Source: Eubacteriales bacterium (GTDB taxonomy: Bacteria > Bacillota > Clostridia > Oscillospirales > CAG-272). From it: a stretch of 64,000 nt of DNA. This document shows, piece after piece, positions 2-32,733 of the stretch. Below the pieces are notes generated by a model. The model made no database searches. It had not been told where the DNA came from and saw only the letters and a program-made list of their open reading frames with translations. Within the stretch, counting starts at the first letter, position 1; each line of letters starts with the position of its first letter. Both the position numbers and the translations under genes were made by a program. The stretch covers positions 36,307 to 100,306 of the forward strand of contig JAZNJH010000025.1 of NCBI GenBank assembly GCA_045577925.1. The letters are read 5' to 3'.

Positions 2-3000
2 CAGGCAAATGACACAATCGTTTTTTGTGACGATGTGAACGAAAACGTAACGATTGACAAGAATATCACACTTGACGGTGCTGATAAGCAGTACACCGGT
101 ACGATGACTATTTCCGACAACAAGACGGTTACGATTGCTAACGTAAATTTTGTAAAGGGATCGATCACCGAAGAAAAGGGTACACACGGAAAATTGACAA
201 TCACGAACTGCGATTTCGATGACAGTGACAAGTCAACAAATTATGCAATTACCGTTCGCGGTAGTGATAATGTCGTTATCGAGGACTGCACTGCAACGGG
301 TTATAACTACGGTATGCTTTACATTCCTTCATCTGTAGCTAATATTAGCGTGAAGAATGTTGAAGTAATTAATTCTACTGTAGCATTCAACATTTCATAC
401 TCCGGCGACGGCAGATTTGAAAATGTAGAGCTGACCAATGTTACGTACGGTCTCCATGTTCAAAATTATGGAGCAAGAACATTTACACTGACCGGATGTG
501 AATTTGATTGCGGTTCTCCTGTATACGTTCAGAAAAAAGGAACGGCTTATGTTACCTTCAAGTTTGAGGGTAACAACGACTTCGGTACAGAAGAATTTAC
601 AGATCCCCTCAATGAATACGCAATACTTAAACTTGCCAATGCTGATGCAACTCTCACTGCTTGCTCAGATCTCAACGTAACGACAGATGTTGAAGGTGGA
701 GTTGTTGAGTATGTCGATGACACATACAGTGTGAAATGCCTGAAGGGTCAGGGTACACAGGAGAAACCTTACCTGATCGAAAACCTGAACGATCTGATCT
801 TTTTCCGTAACAATGTTAATGCAGGCAACACATACGAAGGCAAATATGTTCTTCTTACATCTGACATCGACCTCAAAGGTTACAAAGAAACTAATATAAA
901 TCACGAAGGAAACAACGTTTCTTCTTCTACCTTCAGACCTATTGCTGACAAGGCCAGCGGTGTTGCCTTTAAGGGTACATTTGACGGCGGTGATCACACA
1001 ATTTCTAACCTTTACATAAGCGGTTGGGATATCAATTACCATTGGGATAGTTACGGCCAGGCAGCTCTTTTTGGTACAATTGAAAATGCAACTGTCATGA
1101 ACTTAACTGTAGAAGGCTTTGAAATTCAGGTTGAAGGCGGAGACGTTGCTGCTATTGCAGGTCATGCTAAAGGCGAGTGTACATTTGAAAACATTACTGT
1201 TACAGACAGTAAGATCGCAACCTATAACAACGGTTGTGCAGGTATTGTTGCATGGACAGAAGACGGCGACTATACCTTCAAAAACATCAATATTACTGAT
1301 TCGGTAGTTCTTGCCGGTCTTTGGGGTTCATTCGACTCTTCTATCGGCGGTGTTGTTTCACAGGCTGAACCCGGCGCTGCCTATAATTTCGAAAACGTAG
1401 ATATTGCTTGCCGTCTGGATGTTTATAATGACTGCACAGCTTCCTACGACTACTATAATTACCGTATGTGCGGTATGATCATCGGCCGTCTGGAAGAAAC
1501 TATAACTGTTGACGGAAAAGCATATCCGGATATGTCCAAGTATGACATTACTTGTAAAGATGTTACTGTCACTATGGGCGAGTGGGCAAACTATCACTAC
1601 TGCGAGCCTACTCCCGGATATAATAATGGACGCGGTATGCGTGTCGAGCCCGGTTATGCATATGACGGACTGCCTGCGGATTATGACCACAGCCAATGCA
1701 CAACCAATCATATGACGGTTATGCCATTCACTTCACTCTTCGGCGGTAAGCAGTTAGGTGTAGCGGGTAATACTAAAGAAGACCTTGCAAAGCTCGGCTT
1801 CTTTGACGGTGAAAAGAATAAAGAAGAAGATATAGTAGTAATTGACTATTCACTCCCTGCAAGATCAGTAGCTGAAGTTGAAGGCGAATATTTTGACGAT
1901 CTTCAGAAAGCAATCGATGCAGCAGAAGATGGTGACACAATTACAGTAATTAATGATATTGAAAATGCACAAAATGTCACAATTACCAACAAAACTGTAA
2001 TTATCGACCTTGACGGACACACCGTTAACGGTACAATATTACCTTCAACAGGCGATATTACAATCAAGAACGGTTCAATAGTAAGCAAGAATACTGATAA
2101 TTCCGCTATTGAAATAAACAGCGGTAAGCTTACTCTTACTGACGTAAACATCGAAGGCGCACGTCATGCAGTAAGAATTGACGGTGCTGTTGAGGCGGTT
2201 ATTGACGGCGGTGAATACAAGTTAATTCCTACTGCAGGAAAAACACAGCATGCATTTAATATTTCAGGTGCAGCTAACGTTACATTCGTAGACGGTACGT
2301 TTACAGGGCCTAAAGGAACCTCTGCAGACAGCGGTGCTGCAGTAAACGTACAGTCCGGTGCAACAGCTACAATTCTTGGCGGTACGTATACAGGCGGTAA
2401 GGTTAATACCCTGGCTAACAAGGGTACTCTTACAATTTCCGGCGGTACGTTTGACCAGGATCCGACAGCCTACGTTGCAGAAGGTGCACGTGCTATTGAA
2501 GACAAGGGTAACGGCTATTGGGTAGTTCTCCCTGCAGGCGTTCACAGTATCGAGCTTTCAGTTGACAATTCTGAAAAAACATATTACTTTGAAGATACTA
2601 TCACACTCGACGTTACCGTAAACGGCGGAGCTTACGCTGTATCCGACTGGACTCTTACGTATGATACTGAAAAGCTTGAATACATCGGTACAGTTCAGCT
2701 CGACGGCGACTCAAAAGCTCCCGTTGTTAATGAAACAAGCGGCACAATAACCGAAGAAAACTACAGTAACAAAATCGGTGGCGACCTCTTCGCTGACGGC
2801 TCTAAGGTTACTTACACATTCAAGGTCAAAGCGCCTGTGGAAGATACAACTGCTCTCTTTAAGATCACTGCAGCTACCGTTGATACGGTATTGACAAGTG
2901 CTTACGGAAAGACTGATGTAAATACTCCTGAGCTGACTGTAAACATCAAGCTCAGAGAAATCGTTGAAATCACAAAGGCAGATAACGGTACTGAATTTAC

Positions 3001-3949
3001 CGACGAGCCTTACGTATTCACACACGATGAAAAAGACCACGTGATCACAGTTGATGCAGAAGATATTGACGGCGAAACGATCACATATAAGTTAGACGGC
3101 ACATCTGTTGACGAAGTTAAGATCAATGCTGCCGGAACCTATGTGGTTGAATACACCATCACAAAGGCAGGATACGATACTGTAACAGATACTATCACTA
3201 TCACAGTAGAAGAGGCTGAATTTACAAACGTTATCGTTAAGGACGGAGATGATACTACCATAACCGTCGATCCTTACAACTTCGCATTTGATAACACAGA
3301 CCACGTTATCACAATTGATGCAGATGGTGTTGATGGCGAAAGCATAGTATATACCCTTAACGGCGAAGAAGTGGCTGCGATAAGCCTCAAGGCTGTTGGA
3401 ACTTACGAGATCGGATACACGATAACGAAGGACAGCTACACAACTTACACAGGTACACTCAAAGTTGTTATCACAAATCCCGAATTTGTTATTGAAACAA
3501 GCGTTTACACACTTAACGACCATACTCTCGTAATGCTTTATACAACTGCTGACGGTATGTATCCTAAGCTTGGATCAGACGCAATGTTTGATATCACAGC
3601 AGCAGGATATGAATACCAAGAAAACGAAGACTCGACACCTGTTCCCTACGCTAAGGTATACGGTATAGTTCTTCCCAAGGCAGAGGCAGCCGATCTTGAA
3701 GCTCTCAGAGCATCGATCACATTCTCAACCAAGAAGCCGTTCGTAATCGATCCTTACGATAATGACGTAACGTTTGACTCTCAGGTTAACTCAAGAGATA
3801 TCGTTATTGCAGTTAACGTTTACAACGATTATGAAGACATTCACGGCAAATACGATATGATGAGCAGAATACTCAAATCTGACGTAACCGGCGACAAGAA
3901 GGTTGATATTGCTGACGTTACAGCTATCGAAGCTGAAATATACGGCTGA
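2..3949 (+). CDS. Very large secreted surface protein, 5' end cut by window edge: parallel beta-helix / GLUG-type N-terminal region, internal cohesin-like module, two tandem ~85-aa repeats, C-terminal dockerin-like module
   Basis: The reading frame stays open from position 2, with no stop upstream of the listed GTG at 35. Beta-helix-like turns repeat in the N-terminus (NVTIDKNITLDG, VTIANVNFVKG, LTITNCDF, VVIEDCTATG, ISVKNVEVINS, FENVELTNV). A GLUG-type segment FKGTFDGGDHTISNLYISG is present. The cohesin-like block is SIELSVDNSEKTYYFEDTITLDVTVNG...WTLTYDTEKLEYIG. The C-terminus has duplicated Ca-binding dockerin-like segments DVTFDSQVNSRDIVIAVNVY and DVTGDKKVDIADVTAIEAEI. Confidence 0.85.
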   Translation, partial: QANDTIVFCDDVNENVTIDKNITLDGADKQYTGTMTISDNKTVTIANVNFVKGSITEEKGTHGKLTITNCDFDDSDKSTNYAITVRGSDNVVIEDCTATGYNYGMLYIPSSVANISVKNVEVINSTVAFNISYSGDGRFENVELTNVTYGLHVQNYGARTFTLTGCEFDCGSPVYVQKKGTAYVTFKFEGNNDFGTEEFTDPLNEYAILKLANADATLTACSDLNVTTDVEGGVVEYVDDTYSVKCLKGQGTQEKPYLIENLNDLIFFRNNVNAGNTYEGKYVLLTSDIDLKGYKETNINHEGNNVSSSTFRPIADKASGVAFKGTFDGGDHTISNLYISGWDINYHWDSYGQAALFGTIENATVMNLTVEGFEIQVEGGDVAAIAGHAKGECTFENITVTDSKIATYNNGCAGIVAWTEDGDYTFKNINITDSVVLAGLWGSFDSSIGGVVSQAEPGAAYNFENVDIACRLDVYNDCTASYDYYNYRMCGMIIGRLEETITVDGKAYPDMSKYDITCKDVTVTMGEWANYHYCEPTPGYNNGRGMRVEPGYAYDGLPADYDHSQCTTNHMTVMPFTSLFGGKQLGVAGNTKEDLAKLGFFDGEKNKEEDIVVIDYSLPARSVAEVEGEYFDDLQKAIDAAEDGDTITVINDIENAQNVTITNKTVIIDLDGHTVNGTILPSTGDITIKNGSIVSKNTDNSAIEINSGKLTLTDVNIEGARHAVRIDGAVEAVIDGGEYKLIPTAGKTQHAFNISGAANVTFVDGTFTGPKGTSADSGAAVNVQSGATATILGGTYTGGKVNTLANKGTLTISGGTFDQDPTAYVAEGARAIEDKGNGYWVVLPAGVHSIELSVDNSEKTYYFEDTITLDVTVNGGAYAVSDWTLTYDTEKLEYIGTVQLDGDSKAPVVNETSGTITEENYSNKIGGDLFADGSKVTYTFKVKAPVEDTTALFKITAATVDTVLTSAYGKTDVNTPELTVNIKLREIVEITKADNGTEFTDEPYVFTHDEKDHVITVDAEDIDGETITYKLDGTSVDEVKINAAGTYVVEYTITKAGYDTVTDTITITVEEAEFTNVIVKDGDDTTITVDPYNFAFDNTDHVITIDADGVDGESIVYTLNGEEVAAISLKAVGTYEIGYTITKDSYTTYTGTLKVVITNPEFVIETSVYTLNDHTLVMLYTTADGMYPKLGSDAMFDITAAGYEYQENEDSTPVPYAKVYGIVLPKAEAADLEALRASITFSTKKPFVIDPYDNDVTFDSQVNSRDIVIAVNVYNDYEDIHGKYDMMSRILKSDVTGDKKVDIADVTAIEAEIYG

Positions 3950-4035
3950 TAAAAACCGATGAGTCTGAAGGGGATTTTTACCCGATATAGGTGAAAACCC
4001 CCTTCCTATTATAAAAACACGAGAGGAATTTTTAC

Positions 4036-5994
4036 ATGAAAAAAGTATTATCGGTATTCCTCGCACTTGCTATGCTGTTTTCCCTGCCCGTTACTGTGTT
4101 TGCGGCATCTTCGACAGACACCCAGCTTGAGCACCGTCTGACGTGTAATGACGAAACACTTTACAAGGCAGAGCCCGGAGAGGTAATTACCGTTACCCTT
4201 TCTCTGGAAAACAAAACTGCAGACAAAGGATTTACCATTAAAAACTTTCAGACAGAAATATATTACGACACAGACTTTTTTGAGTACGTGGGTGATATAG
4301 CTATTGATTCTGCAAGTGCAAATTCCAACTGGAACACCCAGGAAACCCTTCACCACAGTGAAAGACGCGTTTGTCTTAATATAATTACAGATACAAGTGC
4401 TATGATCGAGTGTGAGAGCTCTCACAAGATCGCTACCTTTAAGCTTAAAGTAAAGGATAGTGCGCTTGAAGGCTCGCAGGGCTCTGTAAAGTGCCGTATG
4501 GACGACGTTTACGCATTCGGTCCCGACTATAAGGAATACGGCGAAAGCTCTGTTCCTCTTACGGTCGTTGTAGAAAATGAAGAAGAACCCGAAAGCTATA
4601 CGATCACGTATATGAACGACGGCAAGACTTTTGAAACAGCAACTGCAACTCCCGACACGGTGATAACTAAAGCACCCGAGAATAAAAACAAGAGATTTCT
4701 CGGTTGGGAAGATGAAAACGGCAAACTCTGGCAGCCTGACGAAGTATATACGGCAACAAAGGATACTGTATTTACAGCAAAATGGGGCGAGCTGCTTCCG
4801 CCTGCATCATACACGCTAACGTTCGTTACCAACGGCGGCAGTTCGGTAGCTCCCGTTACCAAAACAAGCGGGACAGTATTAAATCTTGCTAACTACACTA
4901 CCGAACGCACAGGCTACACCTTTGACGGTTGGTATGACAGCGCTAACCTTGCTAACAAGCTTACAAGCATTACTCTGACATCAAATACAACGGTCTATGC
5001 CGGATGGATAAAAAAGTCTGTTGATGATGACGATGACAAGCCAAGTTCAGGCGGCGCGTCCACAGGCTCTACGAGATATACCCTTACCTTTGAAACAAAT
5101 GGAGGTTCTGATATCAAGAACGTTAAAAAGGTCAAGAACACGATCGTTGATCTCTCAAAATATATCCCCGAAAAGGACGGATACGTTTTTGACGGCTGGT
5201 ATACAGACAAGGCTCTGACAAACAAGGTTGACAAGATCCAGATAAAATCAAACGTCAAGCTTTATGCCAAGTGGAGTGAAGGCGAGTCCGAAGAAAAAAT
5301 CAAGCCCAATTACAAACCAGATATTCTTACAGACGAGCATTACGCTTACATTCAGGGACGTAATGACGGTATGATTCATCCCACGGCAAATCTTACGAGA
5401 GCCGAGGCGGCTACAATATTCTTCCGCCTGCTTGACGACGATATACGCCGCGGAGAAATGACAAGCACAAATTCATTTGCTGACGTTAACGAGAGTGACT
5501 GGTTCAATACGGCAGTTTCTACCCTTGCAAGTCTTGAAATATTAAATGGCAGATCATCCGACACGTTTGCTCCCAACGATCCGATAACACGAGCAGAGTT
5601 TACAACGATCGTAGCAAGACTTTCCGAGGCAGAATATAACGGCAAAAACCTCTTTACAGATATAGACGGTCACTGGGCTGAAAATTATATCAACATAGCC
5701 GCGTCAATCGGATGGGTAAACGGCCACGACGGTCTTTTCAGACCTGACGACAACATTACCCGTGCTGAAGTTATGACTCTTGTTAACCGCGTGCTCAACC
5801 GTGTTCCCGAAACTGTTGACGATCTTCTTGATAATATGACCAGGTGGGCAGACAACAGTGATGTTAATGCATGGTATTACATAGCGGTTCAGGAAGCGAC
5901 CAACAGTCATGAATACGCTATGAAAGACGGCGGCACTTTTGAAAAATGGACAAAGCTTGTTAAGAATCCCGACTGGTCAAAATTTGAAAACTGA
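4036..5994 (+). CDS. Cell-surface anchoring (scaffoldin-like) protein: signal peptide, cohesin-like module, three Flg_new (Listeria-Bacteroides) repeats, three SLH repeats
   Basis: RBS GAGAGGA precedes the ATG. Signal peptide MKKVLSVFLALAMLFSLPVTVFA. Cohesin-like block AEPGEVITVTLSLENKTADKGFTIKNFQTEIYYDTDFFEYVG. Repeats of the form YTLTF.TNGGS...GY.FDGWY...LYA.W. SLH repeats FADVNESDWF...ITRAEF and FTDIDGHWAENYI...ITRAEV. Confidence 0.88.
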   Translation: MKKVLSVFLALAMLFSLPVTVFAASSTDTQLEHRLTCNDETLYKAEPGEVITVTLSLENKTADKGFTIKNFQTEIYYDTDFFEYVGDIAIDSASANSNWNTQETLHHSERRVCLNIITDTSAMIECESSHKIATFKLKVKDSALEGSQGSVKCRMDDVYAFGPDYKEYGESSVPLTVVVENEEEPESYTITYMNDGKTFETATATPDTVITKAPENKNKRFLGWEDENGKLWQPDEVYTATKDTVFTAKWGELLPPASYTLTFVTNGGSSVAPVTKTSGTVLNLANYTTERTGYTFDGWYDSANLANKLTSITLTSNTTVYAGWIKKSVDDDDDKPSSGGASTGSTRYTLTFETNGGSDIKNVKKVKNTIVDLSKYIPEKDGYVFDGWYTDKALTNKVDKIQIKSNVKLYAKWSEGESEEKIKPNYKPDILTDEHYAYIQGRNDGMIHPTANLTRAEAATIFFRLLDDDIRRGEMTSTNSFADVNESDWFNTAVSTLASLEILNGRSSDTFAPNDPITRAEFTTIVARLSEAEYNGKNLFTDIDGHWAENYINIAASIGWVNGHDGLFRPDDNITRAEVMTLVNRVLNRVPETVDDLLDNMTRWADNSDVNAWYYIAVQEATNSHEYAMKDGGTFEKWTKLVKNPDWSKFEN

Positions 5995-6311: not shown

Positions 6312-6338
6312 CAGTACCTGAATTCATTCTTGCATAAA

Positions 6339-6378
6339 AAGCAGGAGGACGTTGTTGTCCTCCTGCTTTAATTTTTTT
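6339..6378 (+). terminator. Rho-independent terminator
   Basis: AAGCAGGAGGAC-gttgtt-GTCCTCCTGCTT forms a perfect 12-bp stem, followed by TAATTTTTTT. Confidence 0.85.
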
Positions 6379-10192: not shown

Positions 10193-11482
10193 ATGAAAGC
10201 AAAAACACTCGCAATTTTATCAATCATTCTACTTTTAGTAATGGTATTTCCCGTTGTAGCAAGTGCAGATGAGGCTGCTAAGCAGGATCTGTTCGATGCA
10301 GCATATGAAGCATGCCCCGCAAACTACAGAAAATATTATATGGGAACGGTTGAAAACATATTAAATCAGATAGACGTTTCACGTGAGCAGGCAGATTCTG
10401 TAATAGCGCTTGTCGACGAAGGCGTTTCATATCTGAATAGCGTTGGCGACAAAGGCCCTTCGCTCAGCGATTACGGTGTTAAAGGTGTAGAAAAAGGTGT
10501 TTCCTTATTTGAACAGGCATGCTCTGTATTAAATATAGGATATAAATTGACTACAATTCCCGAAAATGCTGCCGCCCATCCCGGAGACCAGTTAATTACA
10601 CTGACATATAACGGCAAAATCATTGCTACAATTGACGGTGATGATCTTTCCTCGTATTCAGCAGGCGGATCAACCGGCTCAACATCTTATTATGCGGTCA
10701 GCTTTGAATCAAACGGCGGTAGCGAAGTTTTAAAGCAACGTGTTAAAAGAGACTCTCTTGTAAAAGAACCTGAAGTTCCTACCAGGGAAGGCTTTGAATT
10801 CGGTGGATGGTATACTGATAAGGAATTCAAAACGCCCTTTGATTTTTCAACTAAAATCAAGAAGAGCATTACTCTTTATGCTAAGTGGGTTGAAATAACA
10901 GAACCCGTCGAACCTGAAGTATGGAAAAATCCGTATGCAGACGTATCCGAGTCAGATTGGTATTTTGAAGATCTGAAGACTCTTACACAGCTTGGTTATA
11001 TAAACGGTGTATCCGATAACGAATTTGGCGGAAATCTTCCGCTTACAAGAGGAATGTTTGTTACTATTCTTCACCGTATTGACGGCGGAGCTGCTGCAAG
11101 TGAGTGCTCTTTTGAAGACGTGGCTGACGGAGCATGGTATGAAGCAGGAGTAAGCTGGGCAAGCGAAAACGGAATCGTTACCGGATTTAATGACAAAGAA
11201 TTCAGACCCGATATTCCGATAACACGCGAACAGATGGCGGCTATTCTCTTCCGCTATGCAATATACAAGGGCATGAATGCAGTAACACTTCAGGAAAGCT
11301 TACACTTTATTGACTCTGATCAGATTTCAGAATACGCTGTACCCGCTATGAACTGGGCTACAAGTGTTCGAATCATCAGAGGCCACGGCGACGGAACAGT
11401 TACACCTCTTGATTATGCAACAAGAGCTCACGTAACCGCAGTATTCGCAAGATTCCTTGAGCTAATAGGAGCTATAAAATAA
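10193..11482 (+). CDS. S-layer-homology (SLH) anchored surface protein with one Flg_new repeat
   Basis: Signal peptide ending VVASA. Flg_new unit YAVSFESNGGSEV...GFEFGGWYTDKEF...LYAKW. Three SLH repeats (YADVSESDWYF..., FEDVADGAWYE..., FIDSDQISEYA...). Confidence 0.85.
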   Translation: MKAKTLAILSIILLLVMVFPVVASADEAAKQDLFDAAYEACPANYRKYYMGTVENILNQIDVSREQADSVIALVDEGVSYLNSVGDKGPSLSDYGVKGVEKGVSLFEQACSVLNIGYKLTTIPENAAAHPGDQLITLTYNGKIIATIDGDDLSSYSAGGSTGSTSYYAVSFESNGGSEVLKQRVKRDSLVKEPEVPTREGFEFGGWYTDKEFKTPFDFSTKIKKSITLYAKWVEITEPVEPEVWKNPYADVSESDWYFEDLKTLTQLGYINGVSDNEFGGNLPLTRGMFVTILHRIDGGAAASECSFEDVADGAWYEAGVSWASENGIVTGFNDKEFRPDIPITREQMAAILFRYAIYKGMNAVTLQESLHFIDSDQISEYAVPAMNWATSVRIIRGHGDGTVTPLDYATRAHVTAVFARFLELIGAIK

Positions 11483-11568
11483 TAACTATCAAATATTACC
11501 TGCCTGAAAGGGCAGGTAATATTGCTATAATATAGTTTGAATTTAAAATTTTCCAAAGCGAGGTACTT

Positions 11569-12243
11569 ATGAGCAAAATAACAAAGGCACTTCTGATGAC
11601 TGTGATGCCGATACTCATCGTCACCGCAATACTTATATTGACACACTGCGTCTACACAGAACTTTCTAAAAACGTCTTTATTTCGGCATTGTTTTCAGAT
11701 AAAAATATTGTCACGGACTTAAGCAGAGAGGCGTCAGATTCACAATTTCATAGCGACGTGCCTGAAACGATAGAATACAGTAATGAAACCATCGGCGCAA
11801 TAGATTTTGCCTCGCAGTGGGCAGAGATAAACGTTGACGGCTGGAGTGTAAAAAATATACCCGTATACTTCGGAGACACTGCCGACATACTTACAAACGG
11901 AGCCGGAATGTGGATAGGCTCGTACTTCTGCGGTCAGGGCAGAAATTGTATAGTTTCCGGCAACGTAATGACTCATTTTTATGAAATTGAAAACACTACG
12001 ATAGGAACACTTATTACGGTAAATACAGTTTACGGGGCATACGAATACGAGGTGTGTGATAAATTCGTCTTTTCAAAGAGTGATATTGACATTCTCTACG
12101 ATGAAAACGGCAGTGATACGCTTATTTTACATACAAGCTATCCTCGCTCTCTCGGGCTCTATACCGGAGATGAACGTATTGCACTCATTTGTACCCTCAA
12201 GCGCGGCATTATATATAAAACCGCCTTTGAGAGTGATAATTAA
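11569..12243 (+). CDS. Sortase-fold membrane-anchored protein; the canonical TLxTC cysteine appears absent
   Basis: N-terminal TM anchor ALLMTVMPILIVTAILILT. The core aligns by eye to class D-type sortases: IPVYFGDTADILTNGAG...IVSGNVMTHFYEI...GTLITV...YEYEV...DTLILHTSYP...ERIAL. At the TLxTC.P position the sequence reads LILHTSYP. Confidence 0.55.
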   Translation: MSKITKALLMTVMPILIVTAILILTHCVYTELSKNVFISALFSDKNIVTDLSREASDSQFHSDVPETIEYSNETIGAIDFASQWAEINVDGWSVKNIPVYFGDTADILTNGAGMWIGSYFCGQGRNCIVSGNVMTHFYEIENTTIGTLITVNTVYGAYEYEVCDKFVFSKSDIDILYDENGSDTLILHTSYPRSLGLYTGDERIALICTLKRGIIYKTAFESDN

Positions 12244-12263
12244 AGAAAGGAAGGTGGCTACGA

Positions 12264-13136
12264 ATGAAAAAAACGATATGTTCCGTTTTAATAACCGCAG
12301 GTGCAGTAATACTTCCCTTTCTTTTGTGCGCCACACTCGTTTTTGCTCTGCCTTATTTTACAATTTATTCTCCCGACGTGTTTACTGAAGGAGTATGCGA
12401 ACAAATTGATAAAGACAGACTTGAGAGTGACATGAAAGCGCTTATAAGCACGACCGTGCAAACGTACAGTCATAACGCAGAAATCATCACTTCCGTTATT
12501 GACAAGTATGAATTAAAAGAGATTGCCGGCGAGTATTTTACAAAATACTTTAATTCCTTTATTTCAGGTGACACAACTACTCCGCGTATAACCTACCGTA
12601 ACAATGCTTTTTACTATGCAATAAAAGAGAATGCTCATTTAAGTCAGCGCCCCGATTTTTTTGAAATAGACGAAAATTCACTCTTGCTTGCAACCAAGTG
12701 TAACAATCTTGTAGAAAATTATATAAATTCTCTGTCAATTGATTCAGCATATTCTCTGCTTACTTCTTACAAAAGTTCATATTTAAAAATAGCAGAAACG
12801 GGAAAGTATTTTCCCCCGCTTGCAACGTTGTGTGCTGTTATTTTTACAATTCTCTTTGTTTATATAATAATTCAGAAACGGTGTAAGACATTATACAGGC
12901 TTACTCTTTCCCTCTTTTCAATATCAGCGATCTTTACCGTGCCGTTTATCTACATTGGTGCGGCTGATCTTCCCGCAAAGCTCAATATCAGCGCCGGGGC
13001 ATCATACTTATACATTAATGCAGTGTACCGCTTTATATTTATTGATACTTCATATGTGTACAGTGCGCTCAGCACTGTCCTTTTGATAGGCTTGATAGCA
13101 TCAATAATATGGAATATTAAAGCTAAGACTGAATAA
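12264..13136 (+). CDS. Polytopic membrane protein, function unknown
   Basis: RBS GGAAGGTGG. One N-terminal and several C-terminal hydrophobic helices flank a ~150-aa soluble loop. I recognised no motif. Confidence 0.7.
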   Translation: MKKTICSVLITAGAVILPFLLCATLVFALPYFTIYSPDVFTEGVCEQIDKDRLESDMKALISTTVQTYSHNAEIITSVIDKYELKEIAGEYFTKYFNSFISGDTTTPRITYRNNAFYYAIKENAHLSQRPDFFEIDENSLLLATKCNNLVENYINSLSIDSAYSLLTSYKSSYLKIAETGKYFPPLATLCAVIFTILFVYIIIQKRCKTLYRLTLSLFSISAIFTVPFIYIGAADLPAKLNISAGASYLYINAVYRFIFIDTSYVYSALSTVLLIGLIASIIWNIKAKTE

Positions 13137-19146: not shown

Positions 19147-19522
19147 TTTGTTTCTCCTTGCCTTTTGGCTATTTTTTCGTGTCTGAATGACAATATAATT
19201 TTACAATATTAACAGATAAATTACAATACATATTATTAACAAAAAAGGTACACCTACTTTTTGGCATTTTGAACAAATAACCAACACTTTTTGCGAAAAA
19301 TTACGTTTTTCAATTTATTTTGCTTATTTTTGGCTTTATTGTACAATTTTTGTGCCGATTTTTTTAGTTTTTACACAAACGCAAATGCTTTTGCAGGACT
19401 TGTTTAAAAATTCTGTAAAAAATATGTAACCAAAATACAACTTCCGAATAAATGCGAAAGTCTTGTCAAATAGTATTCTTGTAAAAAGATAAATTTTGCA
19501 CCGTGAAAGGAATGATTATAAC

Positions 19523-20818
19523 ATGGCAAAAAAGAAGCACGCACGTTATACCTTTATGATAACTTTATTAGCGCTCACTCTTGCTCTGCACGCATCTGCA
19601 TTTTCAGTCTCTCCGGCACTTGATATTATTGCAAACGAATACGGACTTACAAAAGTAAGCCTTGTCAGCCGCGACGTTTATTTTGAATCCTCGGATTTCA
19701 GCGAAGTAACCGGGCTTGATAAAATAGATTATATAACTGTAAAAGCACTGCCGGACCAAAATGCAGGAACGCTTATGATCGGAAATATTGCGATTGGCGA
19801 AAACCAGAAAATAAGCAGTAAGAATCTTTCAAACCTCCGCTTTGTGCCGAGAAGCTCAAATGAAATTGCCACTTCTTTTACCTTCAGCACAAATAACAAT
19901 GCCGCCACCTACACGTGCTCGGTATATTTACTTGAGCGCGATAATGCGGCACCGAGCATACAAAGCAGTGCCGGAAATTCACTTTCCACTTATAAAAGCA
20001 TGCCTGTTTTCGGAAAGCTTAAAGCACACGATCCCGAAAACGATCCGCTCACTTTTAAAATAATAAGCGCTCCATTACACGGTAAGCTTGAGCTTACAGA
20101 CAAAACGACCGGCAGCTTCTCATATACGCCCGAAAACGGATATTCGGGAATCGACTTTTTTGAATATGCAGCCTATGACAAATACGCAAACGTATCAGAA
20201 ACGGCGCGTGTAAGTCTAAACGTTCTTGAACCTCAGACAAATATTGTGTTTAGTGACCTTGAAGGTCATTGGGCGCATTATGCGGCTATACGCACCGTTG
20301 CCTGCGGAGCTATGAGCTTTGAGTCTGAGGGTGGTGTATACAACTTCATGCCCGACTTGCCCGTATCGCGTGCTGAGTTCTGTGCATCACTTATGAAAAA
20401 CGCAGGATACAACGGTTTCAGTGCAGTAAGCTCTACGGGATATGCGGACGATGAGGATATTCCGGAAGAATATAAAGGTTATATTGCAGCCGCAAGCGTG
20501 CTTGGTGTTACAAGCGGAATAGAAGCCGACGGCAATCTTCTTTTCTGCCCCAACAATCAGATCACACGCGCTGAAGCCGCCGTAATGATAGAGCGCCTTT
20601 ACGGTTTTTCAAACGATGTTGAAGTTTCGTCAAACGCTTCTGTTGCAGTTTTCGCCGATGCTTCAAGCGTACCTGTATGGGCACACGAAAGTATTGGCGT
20701 TCTGTCAAATCTCGGAATACTCAGCGGCGACTCTTACGGTAATATTTCACCGTATGCCGGTCTTACCCGCGCGCAGACTGCCGTTATGCTTTCCAACATC
20801 AGCGACAACGCAAGATAA
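19523..20818 (+). CDS. SLH-anchored surface protein with cadherin-like/Ig-like repeat
   Basis: Start moved to ATG 19523 (MAKKKHARYTF). Cadherin-like segment DPENDPLTFKIISAPLHGKLELTDKTTGSFSYTPENGYSGIDFFEY. Three SLH repeats at the C-terminus. Confidence 0.82.
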   Translation: MAKKKHARYTFMITLLALTLALHASAFSVSPALDIIANEYGLTKVSLVSRDVYFESSDFSEVTGLDKIDYITVKALPDQNAGTLMIGNIAIGENQKISSKNLSNLRFVPRSSNEIATSFTFSTNNNAATYTCSVYLLERDNAAPSIQSSAGNSLSTYKSMPVFGKLKAHDPENDPLTFKIISAPLHGKLELTDKTTGSFSYTPENGYSGIDFFEYAAYDKYANVSETARVSLNVLEPQTNIVFSDLEGHWAHYAAIRTVACGAMSFESEGGVYNFMPDLPVSRAEFCASLMKNAGYNGFSAVSSTGYADDEDIPEEYKGYIAAASVLGVTSGIEADGNLLFCPNNQITRAEAAVMIERLYGFSNDVEVSSNASVAVFADASSVPVWAHESIGVLSNLGILSGDSYGNISPYAGLTRAQTAVMLSNISDNAR

Positions 20819-30702: not shown

Positions 30703-32733
30703 ATGATATACAGATATAAATTTAAGTTTGTTTTGCTTTCGCTTTTGCTTATAATACTACTTAGTCTGTGCTCCTGCTCGGTAGGATCCATGCTCGGATT
30801 TGACGACAACTCTGCTCTTAGTATTATCTCAGACAGCAAAAGCGAATACCGCATAGTATGCGCATATGAAGCCGATTCTGACATAATTGACTCTGCACTC
30901 TCGGTTATAAATACGGCAAGAACCAAAAGCGGTGCAGAAATTGAGCTTGTTATCGACAGTAACGCTGTGCATGATAACTCAAACAAAGAAATAATCGTCG
31001 GAAGCACAAACCGAGGCCTTCCTGAAGGATTTGAAGGGCCAAGCCCTATGGAATTTGTTATTGTGGCAAGCGACAATGATATTTATATTATCGGCGGCTC
31101 TGATTCTGCAACGATTATGGCGCTTGAATATTTCGCAGAAAATATTATAGCAGAAGAAACTATTCTGGAAAGAGATTACAAATACAGCTACTGCGTACCG
31201 TACACCGTTGTAAATATTAATTCTGCCCCTGTTACAAGCTTTAAGATAAATGCTCTTGAAGGAGTTGATACAATAGCAGTATCGCAGGCACTTATATCAA
31301 AAACAGGGCTTGATACGTCAGATGATGACAATTACACTGATGTATATTTCGAGCTTGATTATTCGCTTGACACCAATACCGTCCGTTTCGCAGAACAAGC
31401 TAATTCTATCCTTATAAGTGCATCTTCCAAAATAGCTCTTACAAAAATAGATGAAGTTATACTTGAAGGTTTCGGAGAATATGCTACCATAAACTTAGAC
31501 CACGGTTCATATGTGGATTTTACCTACCCGATCGTGAGCTTAAATGAAATATCTGATTACAGCGATTGTTATCTTGAATGTGAGACAAATAAATCTCCGC
31601 TTGAATATGCTGTAGGGGAAGAAATGGTATATACCCTCTCTTTGAAATACGACGGCGAAATTATCAGTGCTCCAAATTTCTCTTATAAAATTGACTTTGA
31701 CGACACAAAGGAAAGTATAACAGAAAACGTATCGGGCGAAAAGGGCACTTTTGTAATACAAACCTCCCTGGATACACCAGGGTTTGTAAAAATATATGCC
31801 AACGTAACAAGTGATCTTGGAATTGAATACAGAGATATATCGCCTTTCGAGGGTGGTGCTGCTGCTAATATCCGCGGTATTGCGCAAGCTGTTAAAGAAC
31901 CCGATGATTTTGATGAATTCTGGCAGGCAGAGCTTGAAAACCTTTATGAAACAGAGCCTGTTATGAGCATTAAAAACGATTTATCGGAAAGCTACCCCGG
32001 ATACACGGTTCTTGATATACGTATTGACTGCCCGGGCGGGCCGGTTTCTGCATATCTTTCAATACCAAACAATGCAAAGGAAGGCTCGTTACCGATACTT
32101 GTAGGTTATCTCGGTTACGGTGTATTTTCGCCTAAACCTACCGTGAGAAATGACCGTATAGTGCTTAGCGTTAACGCGCATAGTCTTGATAACGGACGTG
32201 AAAGCGGATATTACAAAGAGGTGTCATCAACCGTTCTTTATTCTTACGGTTTTAACACTTATGAAAACTCCAACCGCGACACAGTATATTTCAAAAACAT
32301 GATACTTCGCGACGTTCAGGCGATAAGATATCTGAAAACACTCAAAGAGTGGGACGGAGAATCGATAAGTCTTAACGGCGGCAGCCAGGGTGCATATCAG
32401 GCGCTTGCAGTTGCGGCGCTTGATCCTGACGTAACCTACGTATATGCCGCATACCCGTGGTTGTGTGATATCGGAAGCTTTGCTGCAAACCGAATAGGCG
32501 GCTGGCATCCCGATTATACTGATGCTCTTACCTACTATGACGCTATAAATTTTGCAAAGCGCATCAAATGTCAAACAAGAATCGTTGCAGGTCTTGGCGA
32601 TTATGTATCACCGCCCTCGTCTGTTGCGGCATTGGTAAACTCGATGAGCGCGCCTGTGTCACTTGAATTTATTCAGGGTATGACTCACACGTATACACCG
32701 CCATACGAGCAAATGTATAAGATAGAAAAATAA
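30703..32733 (+). CDS. Lipoprotein with C-terminal acetylxylan esterase / cephalosporin-C deacetylase (CE7, AXE1) domain and an N-terminal domain of unknown function
   Basis: Signal/lipobox LLSLCSCS. AXE1-like EPDDFDEFWQAELENL...; nucleophile elbow NGGSQGAYQA; C-terminal GMTHTY. Confidence 0.75.
   Translation: MIYRYKFKFVLLSLLLIILLSLCSCSVGSMLGFDDNSALSIISDSKSEYRIVCAYEADSDIIDSALSVINTARTKSGAEIELVIDSNAVHDNSNKEIIVGSTNRGLPEGFEGPSPMEFVIVASDNDIYIIGGSDSATIMALEYFAENIIAEETILERDYKYSYCVPYTVVNINSAPVTSFKINALEGVDTIAVSQALISKTGLDTSDDDNYTDVYFELDYSLDTNTVRFAEQANSILISASSKIALTKIDEVILEGFGEYATINLDHGSYVDFTYPIVSLNEISDYSDCYLECETNKSPLEYAVGEEMVYTLSLKYDGEIISAPNFSYKIDFDDTKESITENVSGEKGTFVIQTSLDTPGFVKIYANVTSDLGIEYRDISPFEGGAAANIRGIAQAVKEPDDFDEFWQAELENLYETEPVMSIKNDLSESYPGYTVLDIRIDCPGGPVSAYLSIPNNAKEGSLPILVGYLGYGVFSPKPTVRNDRIVLSVNAHSLDNGRESGYYKEVSSTVLYSYGFNTYENSNRDTVYFKNMILRDVQAIRYLKTLKEWDGESISLNGGSQGAYQALAVAALDPDVTYVYAAYPWLCDIGSFAANRIGGWHPDYTDALTYYDAINFAKRIKCQTRIVAGLGDYVSPPSSVAALVNSMSAPVSLEFIQGMTHTYTPPYEQMYKIEK

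Follow-up and report, generated by a model that had tools for sequence, protein, structure and literature searches.

A candidate cohesin–dockerin pair for surface display of a giant, variable non-cellulosomal protein in an Oscillospirales bacterium

Two adjoining genes at the start of a 64,000-nucleotide stretch of DNA from a Eubacteriales bacterium of the order Oscillospirales (assembly GCA_045577925.1, contig JAZNJH010000025.1, positions 36,307 to 100,306; the whole stretch is called the window in the following) appear to encode a dedicated cohesin–dockerin surface-display pair that is not part of a cellulosome, and we put the probability of this reading at about 0.65. It builds on domain assignments and on the comparison with related loci: gene 2 codes for a predicted cell-wall anchor with one N-terminal cohesin, the giant protein encoded by gene 1 seems to end in a divergent dockerin that is fused to an X module, and genes of these two kinds stand side by side in the related loci as well. 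The two open reading frames (ORFs) and the spacer between them are given here with their window positions.

2–3949, + strand: gene 1, giant secreted passenger (C-terminal 1315 amino acids, aa), ORF open at the window edge and without a start
3950–4035, + strand: intergenic spacer of 86 nucleotides (nt), with a hairpin lacking a T-tract and the ribosome-binding site GAGAGGAA 5' of the gene 2 ATG
4036–5994, + strand: gene 2, cell-wall anchor, 652 aa, ORF

Both ORFs lie where a preliminary description of this DNA had put them, and the one that runs out of the window has 1315 codons. As no terminator-like site was found on the + strand in the spacer between the two genes, while a strong one is present beyond gene 2 at 6338–6369, genes 1 and 2 are likely co-transcribed. 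The closest complete counterpart is a syntenic ortholog of gene 1 in an Oscillospiraceae metagenome-assembled genome (L001:4162–9915, 1917 aa), which aligns to gene 1 aa 19–1315 with 66% identity, so that the window covers residues 595–1917 of the ortholog. Its N-terminus shows a signal peptide followed by an acidic linker, the counterpart of gene 2 at this locus is 88% identical and the neighbouring genes are found in the same order as in the window. By analogy, gene 1 would have a full length of about 1900 aa and the window would start ~1.8 kb inside the gene. As the ortholog possesses a signal peptide at its beginning and a dockerin at its end, with no SLH, LPXTG or membrane anchor visible in it, it should be secreted and would depend on a partner for its attachment to the cell.

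This partner could be the product of gene 2, for which the following parts were identified.

4036–4104, + strand: signal peptide of 23 aa, MKKVLSVFLALAMLFSLPVTVFA/ASS, read from the sequence by eye and signal-peptide-like
4105–4581, + strand: anchor cohesin of the type named A1 here, aa 24–182 (Pfam, AlphaFold2, Foldseek, profile against PDB)
4591–5274, + strand: three Flg_new (Listeria–Bacteroides) repeats with Gly/Asp-rich linkers, a presumed spacer stalk (Pfam, TIGR02543)
5323–5991, + strand: three SLH repeats and a conserved C-terminal tail, the end predicted to bind the secondary cell-wall polymer (Pfam, PDB match)

Pfam detects the SLH repeats in three stretches (106 bits, E=9e-31), and in a PDB sequence search aa 438–596 match the SLH domain of Sap from Bacillus anthracis (3pyw, E=2.3e-9). 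A predicted secreted protein that ends in three SLH repeats, as encoded by gene 2, has the layout of an SLH-anchored surface protein. The Flg_new repeats are likewise found in three stretches (E=4e-34), and TIGR02543 also matches. The cohesin clears the Pfam cutoff only as an isolated domain: when aa 24–181 were scanned alone PF00963 was found with 33.2 bits (cutoff 24.1, E=7e-8), whereas it is unreported in the Pfam scan of the full-length protein. Several homologues of gene 2 carry PF00963 in their precomputed annotation. From an alignment of the gene 2 cohesin with 24 homologues (A1) a profile was built that retrieves cohesins from PDB, with 4ums at E=4.9e-4 and the NagJ cohesins among them. 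The AlphaFold2 model based on the same alignment is all-beta with a mean predicted local distance difference test score (pLDDT) of 94.9. All of its best 50 PDB matches in Foldseek are cohesins, the top one being 6kgf_C (E=9.4e-11, template modelling (TM) scores 0.76/0.82), and OlpC (4dh2) and OlpA (3ul4) of C. thermocellum are among the closest structures. Model and matches assign to aa 24–182 the nine-stranded jelly-roll beta-sandwich of the cohesin fold, and we therefore regard the N-terminal module of gene 2, as predicted, as a cohesin beyond reasonable doubt. The order of signal peptide, cohesin, three Flg_new and three SLH repeats proposed in the preliminary description was recovered completely.

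The second half of the pair is the C-terminal cassette of gene 1, composed of the following parts.

2531–2956, + strand: internal cohesin of the type named A3 here, aa 844–985 (family profiles)
2957–3475, + strand: two tandem immunoglobulin (Ig)-like repeats of ~88 aa, aa 986–1158 (weak Filamin/MBG_3 matches)
3476–3751, + strand: X module, beta-rich, aa 1159–1250, invariably with the dockerin directly after it (family conservation, AlphaFold2)
3752–3946, + strand: divergent dockerin, aa 1251–1315 (family profiles; two 12-residue calcium-loop-like segments)
3764–3799, + strand: calcium loop 1, DVTFDSQVNSRD, 12 residues
3881–3916, + strand: calcium loop 2, DVTGDKKVDIAD, 12 residues

The two motifs from which a dockerin had been proposed in the preliminary description lie at aa 1255–1271 (nt 3764–3814) and aa 1294–1311 (nt 3881–3934) and contain these loops. 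Relatives of the gene 1 C-terminus were collected by an exhaustive search of representative proteins, which returned 120 sequences. A 157-aa unit homologous to aa 1159–1315 is present in 55 of the 120, in all of them no more than 19 residues from the C-terminus; a domain homologous to aa 844–985 lies further upstream in 18 of these, and the Ig-like repeat recurs many times in large proteins. A word-indexed homologue search found nothing for the gene 1 C-terminus and only one fragment with the X-dockerin alignment, as its index seems to be without these proteins.

Two alignments were made from the relatives, one of the X-dockerin unit with 36 members (A2) and one of the internal cohesin with 19 members (A3). 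The A2 consensus reads ...KKLVLVYTN...DVNxxxxVxxxDI..YGVYN...(about 15)...LKADxNxDKxVDxxD, with invariant Asp at positions 1 and 12 of loop 2 and at position 12 of loop 1. Pfam Dockerin_1 (PF00404) is matched by 10 of the 36 A2 members at E<=0.01 (best 1e-7), the dockerin of the L001 ortholog reaches 20.5 bits with it, and the A2 profile has eight matches in PDB which are all dockerins, the best one being the ScaH dockerin of R. flavefaciens (8ajy_B, E=2.9e-4). AlphaFold2 models the 157-aa unit with a pLDDT of 95.5 and a predicted TM score of 0.89, showing a beta-rich X module and helices at residues 106–116 and 145–156 of the unit after the calcium loops. Aa 1251–1315 hence contain a duplicated EF-hand-like calcium loop with a following helix, and the X module immediately 5' of this C-terminal dockerin is conserved with it as one unit, which is the arrangement of an X-dockerin dyad in the style of types II/III. 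Neither the A2 profile search of PDB nor Foldseek revealed a sequence or fold match of the X module to any solved X module. We thus read the tail of gene 1 as a putative dockerin of divergent sequence, joined to an X module without a relative among the solved structures. The internal cohesin is supported at the level of the domain family: 16 of the 19 A3 members match PF00963 (best 4.3e-7), the top 14 PDB matches of the A3 profile are all cohesins (E 0.002–0.07), and hhalign aligns the A3 profile with that of the gene 2 cohesin at 95.2% probability (E=2.9e-8). As the gene 2 cohesin passes the cutoff only when isolated and the word-indexed search is blind to the gene 1 C-terminus, routine annotation probably misses this cohesin/X-dockerin family.

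The strongest argument that both genes belong together comes from their neighbourhood. We surveyed 80 loci with 10-kb flanks, obtained with an alignment of the gene 2 family (A4) and restricted to one genome per species, and searched their six-frame ORFs with hidden Markov models of the three modules. An A1-type cohesin on an SLH protein was found at 11 of the 80 loci, and at 10 of these 11 the anchor gene is directly adjoined, on the same strand, by one whose product contains an A3 cohesin and ends in an X-dockerin. Among the 69 control loci, which code for an SLH/Flg_new protein without cohesin, either module within 10 kb was found at none (Fisher p=7e-12). Including the window and three more contexts, the pairing is present at 14 of 15 distinct loci against 0 of 69 (Fisher p about 5e-15). 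In an exploratory comparison of 13 loci the divergence of the anchor A1 cohesin follows that of the neighbouring dockerin (r=0.85) more closely than that of its own SLH part (r=0.46). Three loci contain a third gene between the giant gene and the anchor.

L007:7718–9154: extra protein with cohesin, Ig-like repeat and X-dockerin
L008:7694–9091: the same
L009:8634–9920: the same

These extra proteins are small (430–480 aa) and their dockerin parts are only 38–40% identical to those of the giant proteins of the same loci, so they may represent an adaptor tier. The suggestion of the preliminary description that the cohesin of gene 1 could recruit further dockerin proteins fits such three-gene loci.

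From these data the following assembly can be proposed. The product of gene 2 would be secreted and bound to the cell wall by its three SLH repeats, with its single N-terminal cohesin held off the wall on the stalk of three Flg_new repeats. The giant product of gene 1, which would be secreted without a wall anchor of its own, would plug its X-dockerin into this cohesin in a calcium-dependent manner and would thereby be displayed non-covalently on the wall, exposing its beta-helix segments and its conserved central domain. The cohesin of gene 1 would then offer a second socket for another X-dockerin protein, which might be a further copy of the same protein or the small adaptor where one is encoded. 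The physical binding, the choice of socket and the calcium dependence are what we infer from the domain content and the gene order.

The part that would be exposed in this way is composed of three segments.

2–736, + strand: first right-handed beta-helix segment, aa 1–245, hypervariable (Pfam Beta_helix; identity per window segment)
737–1951, + strand: conserved Cys/aromatic-rich central domain, aa 246–650 (identity to the ortholog; weak GLUG/Peptidase_M26_N-like repeat pattern)
1952–2530, + strand: second beta-helix-like segment, aa 651–843, variable (identity per window segment)

Aa 1–245 match Beta_helix (PF13229) with 37.5 bits and show weak NosD- and pectate-lyase-like matches too, which bears out the beta-helix named in the preliminary description. 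The GLUG-like repeats named together with it lack statistical support, as GLUG reaches only 9.6 bits (E=1.8), and both this match and that to Peptidase_M26_N (19.7 bits) are under the Pfam cutoff. No Pfam match was found for aa 651–843, and sequence searches of PDB, made with the whole proteins and with the central domain, yielded no informative match for the passenger. Compared to the L001 ortholog the identity is 22–32% over aa 1–245, rises within the central domain from 66% at its N-terminal end to 84–98% over aa 351–650, and falls again to 30–56% over aa 651–800, while the flanking housekeeping genes of both loci are 84–94% identical. This mosaic divergence spans window positions 2–2530 and approximately L001:5890–8500. 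The exposed parts of gene 1 may accordingly have been replaced as cassettes or be under strong diversifying selection, and as such a mosaic points to an exposed, diversifying surface, the passenger is more likely an adhesin or antigen than an enzyme.

Several observations weigh against the proposed display pair. With Dockerin_1 the window sequence scores 14.9 bits when the full protein is scanned, or 19.5 bits as isolated domain, both below the cutoff of 22.9, and position 3 of both its calcium loops is Thr where the relatives have Asn. Foldseek found nothing at E<=0.001 for the X-dockerin model, the ScaH dockerin 8ajy_B appearing at rank 30 with E=1.6, a root-mean-square deviation of 3.3 A over 56 columns and a target-normalised TM score of 0.51. 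The internal cohesin of the window shows no match to PF00963 even at E<=10. The dockerin and internal cohesin of the preliminary description are hence carried by their families (10 of 36 relatives in Pfam and eight of eight PDB matches for the former, 16 of 19 relatives and the profiles for the latter), while the window sequences stay below the Pfam cutoff or without a Pfam match. Furthermore, no X-dockerin gene adjoins the anchor at one of the loci, L005, two metagenome scans with trimmed X-dockerin alignments yielded no confirmed locus, so that adjacency is counted from the anchor side only, and the co-divergence test, with a correlation inflated by a few close pairs, does not tell whether the anchor cohesin or that of gene 1 itself is the partner. 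At L005 (L005:600–15500) the anchor is flanked by genes of conjugation type and by a tyrosine integrase, and a mobile element may therefore have displaced or separated the partner gene there.

The last of these points leads to the possibility that the dockerin of gene 1 binds the cohesin of gene 1 itself, either as a clasp in cis or in trans as head-to-tail chains, leaving the gene 2 cohesin to another ligand or to the first unit only. Internal cohesin and X-dockerin always occur together as one C-terminal cassette, some small proteins consist only of signal peptide, cohesin, Ig and X-dockerin (P0130, P0148, P0154), and the divergence of the internal cohesin correlates with that of the dockerin (r=0.80–0.84) as well as the divergence of the anchor cohesin does. 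Such a correlation is to be expected anyway between domains of one polypeptide, however, and if the protein bound only to itself, it would have no attachment to the wall and the cohesin of the conserved neighbouring anchor no ligand. In addition, the low identity between the dockerins of the three-gene loci hints at two specificities and not at one self-specificity, and we regard self-binding in place of anchor binding as unlikely. That the C-terminal segment is no dockerin at all but a calcium-binding stabilising tail, the genes adjoining for co-regulation without direct contact of their products, would agree with the sub-threshold score of the window sequence and with the lack of significance in Foldseek. 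It is highly improbable in view of a family profile that matches only dockerins in PDB, of the relatives that match Dockerin_1 directly, and of the near-perfect association with a cohesin-bearing neighbour that is absent from the controls.

A different question is whether the pair is simply an ordinary, minimal cellulosome-type enzyme display with a polysaccharide lyase or hydrolase for plant or host glycans as passenger. Beta-helix folds can be lyases, and the PF13229 match with its weak NosD- and pectate-lyase-like companions would agree with this, as would the cellulosomal origin of the closest cohesin structures and an AXE1 esterase gene 25 kb away. No catalytic family of carbohydrate-active enzymes (CAZymes) was detected at threshold, however, in gene 1, in its full-length ortholog or in four other giant neighbours, no further cohesin or dockerin is encoded in any frame of the 64-kb window, and the 20 further window ORFs scanned, mostly for transporters and housekeeping functions, include no glycoside hydrolase. 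A beta-helix that is swapped or hypervariable between close relatives is moreover more typical of an exposed adhesin or antigen than of a conserved active site, and so enzyme display appears quite improbable to us. A cellulosome would show dockerin-bearing CAZymes and a multi-cohesin scaffoldin, neither of which is found in the window, where each of the two proteins has one cohesin. The classical cellulosome was rejected for want of a CAZyme and of further dockerins in the window, in agreement with the preliminary description, which had noted the absence of a glycoside hydrolase nearby.

The AXE1-family (acetyl xylan esterase) protein has 676 aa (30703–32733), with an unassigned N-terminal extension of ~390 aa and without a dockerin. 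Among the window ORFs scanned no other candidate for a carbohydrate-active protein was seen.

Returning to the display pair, its expression is probably controlled by a promoter inversion switch, as judged from the related loci. A gene for a tyrosine recombinase of ~280 aa was found just upstream of the giant gene and on the same strand at all eight distinct loci for which upstream DNA was available. The recombinase is Xer-like and under all equivalog cutoffs, and the outer flanking genes vary by locus. All of these regions lie outside the window.

L001:2673–3875, L004:300–1491, L009:211–1467, L013:2820–4052: recombinase/switch region upstream of the giant gene
L083:1353–2574, L085:2368–3522, L086:4507–5756: recombinase/switch region upstream of the giant gene

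Directly 3' of the recombinase gene are inverted ACATAAT-N4-ATTATGT sites at a distance of about 262 nt. Their asymmetric 4-nt spacers are locus-specific and always reverse-complementary between both sides (CCGT/ACGG, CGAA/TTCG, CAAA/TTTG, CAAT/ATTG). This site was found in 0 of 76 other fetched loci, and the window shows no match to its core. The segment between the sites encloses a near-consensus promoter, which in L083 is TTGACA-17-TATAAT (12/12), and this promoter points toward the giant gene in L004 and L083–L086 and away from it in L001, L009 and L013. An adjacent recombinase, inverted sites and both orientations are thus found together in the related loci, the orientations being seen across species and not within one population. 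The occurrence of both orientations suggests an invertible on/off switch and phase-variable expression, and by analogy the transcription of the window module would be phase-variable too. Further members of this recombinase family (E about 1e-91 to 1e-95) are also encoded upstream of SLH/Flg_new loci without a cohesin, together with analogous inverted repeats, e.g. ACAAAATCAACATTTTGT, that are 178–289 nt apart.

L023:5268–6470, L061:24–1216, L037:2193–3401, L031:5583–6937: same-family recombinases upstream of cohesin-less SLH/Flg_new loci

The design of the switch may therefore be general to surface-protein loci of the Oscillospirales, including the cultured Dysosmobacter segnis. Taken together, one might tentatively imagine that uncultured gut Oscillospirales possess a phase-variable system of surface fibres not described so far, in which a recombinase flips the promoter, the giant proteins daisy-chain on the SLH anchor via cohesin and X-dockerin, the beta-helix is exchanged between strains for adhesion or for escape from phages or host immunity, and the same switch operates at other SLH loci of the order, but in this complete form we consider it doubtful.

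Other surface genes were observed in the window as well. A second SLH protein (region 10193–13136, 429 aa) contains one Flg_new, SLH repeats and a ~160-aa N-terminal domain without assignment, and its gene is followed by a sortase gene (11569–12243) and by the gene for a 290-aa multi-pass membrane protein, an arrangement that is kept in the ortholog locus. A third SLH protein (19496–20818) carries a Big_9/cadherin-like Ig domain. SLH-anchored surface proteins are evidently numerous in the source genome.

Work on cohesin–dockerin pairs has dealt almost exclusively with their role as the glue of cellulosomes. Here, the same glue would serve as a fixed two- or three-gene cassette that mounts a giant, fast-diversifying non-CAZyme protein on the cell wall in common uncultured gut Clostridia and that is apparently governed by an on/off DNA switch. 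As the X-dockerin family escapes the Pfam thresholds, such a surface architecture may well be under-annotated in gut metagenomes. The module could also provide a clean, testable cohesin–dockerin specificity pair with a new X module, which might be of interest for protein-assembly engineering, and a handle on surface variation in Oscillospiraceae.

Literature searches gave no description of such a module, and its single parts can be compared with known systems. The closest likeness to gene 2 is found in OlpA and OlpC of C. (Acetivibrio) thermocellum (3ul4, 4dh2), which likewise combine a signal peptide and a single cohesin with a linker and an SLH triplet and which hold one dockerin-bearing protein directly at the wall, as proposed here for gene 2. 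Their ligands, however, are enzymes of the cellulosome that carry canonical type I dockerins, whereas the presumed ligand here is a giant protein made of beta-helices and ending in a divergent X-dockerin, the stalk is built from Flg_new repeats, and the anchor gene adjoins the gene of its presumed ligand as a conserved pair. An X module directly 5' of a C-terminal dockerin, as in gene 1, is also known from the CipA XDocII with SdbA, OlpB and Orf2p in C. thermocellum and from the XDoc of ScaB and CttA with ScaE in Ruminococcus flavefaciens, where such dyads tether scaffoldins to anchoring cohesins. In these systems, too, the carrier possesses its own cohesin(s) and the partner is a wall-bound cohesin protein. 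In contrast to them, the X module of gene 1 has no detectable match to a solved structure, its carrier has one cohesin instead of many with no enzyme dockerins in sight, and the anchor is of the SLH type while ScaE is anchored by sortase.

Cohesins and dockerins outside cellulose degradation, as here, are represented by the NagH/NagJ toxin complexes of Clostridium perfringens, by the amylosome of R. bromii (PMC4611034) and by archaeal cohesins (2xdh), and NagJ cohesins are among the sequence and structure matches of the cohesins of our module. Those systems join enzymes, whereas the pair of genes 1 and 2 seems to display a giant surface protein that is no CAZyme and forms a fixed two- or three-gene cassette. 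With respect to the switch, the large, phase-variable cell-wall protein CwpV of Clostridioides difficile differs antigenically from strain to strain and is switched by the tyrosine recombinase RecV through inversion of a short DNA segment flanked by inverted repeats (PMC2784873, PMC3080850). The likeness concerns the switch upstream of the gene 1 orthologs, outside the window. The switch of cwpV acts through a leader terminator and RecV is encoded elsewhere, while here the invertible piece carries a promoter and the recombinase is adjacent; CwpV has its own wall-binding repeats and gene 1 the putative dockerin instead. In summary, the cohesin, the dockerin, the X-dockerin dyad and the OlpA/OlpC-type SLH anchor would all be of known kinds, and the module would differ from known systems in its giant hypervariable non-CAZyme cargo, its unrelated X module, a dockerin subfamily that largely escapes Pfam, its fixed cassette and a probable promoter inversion.

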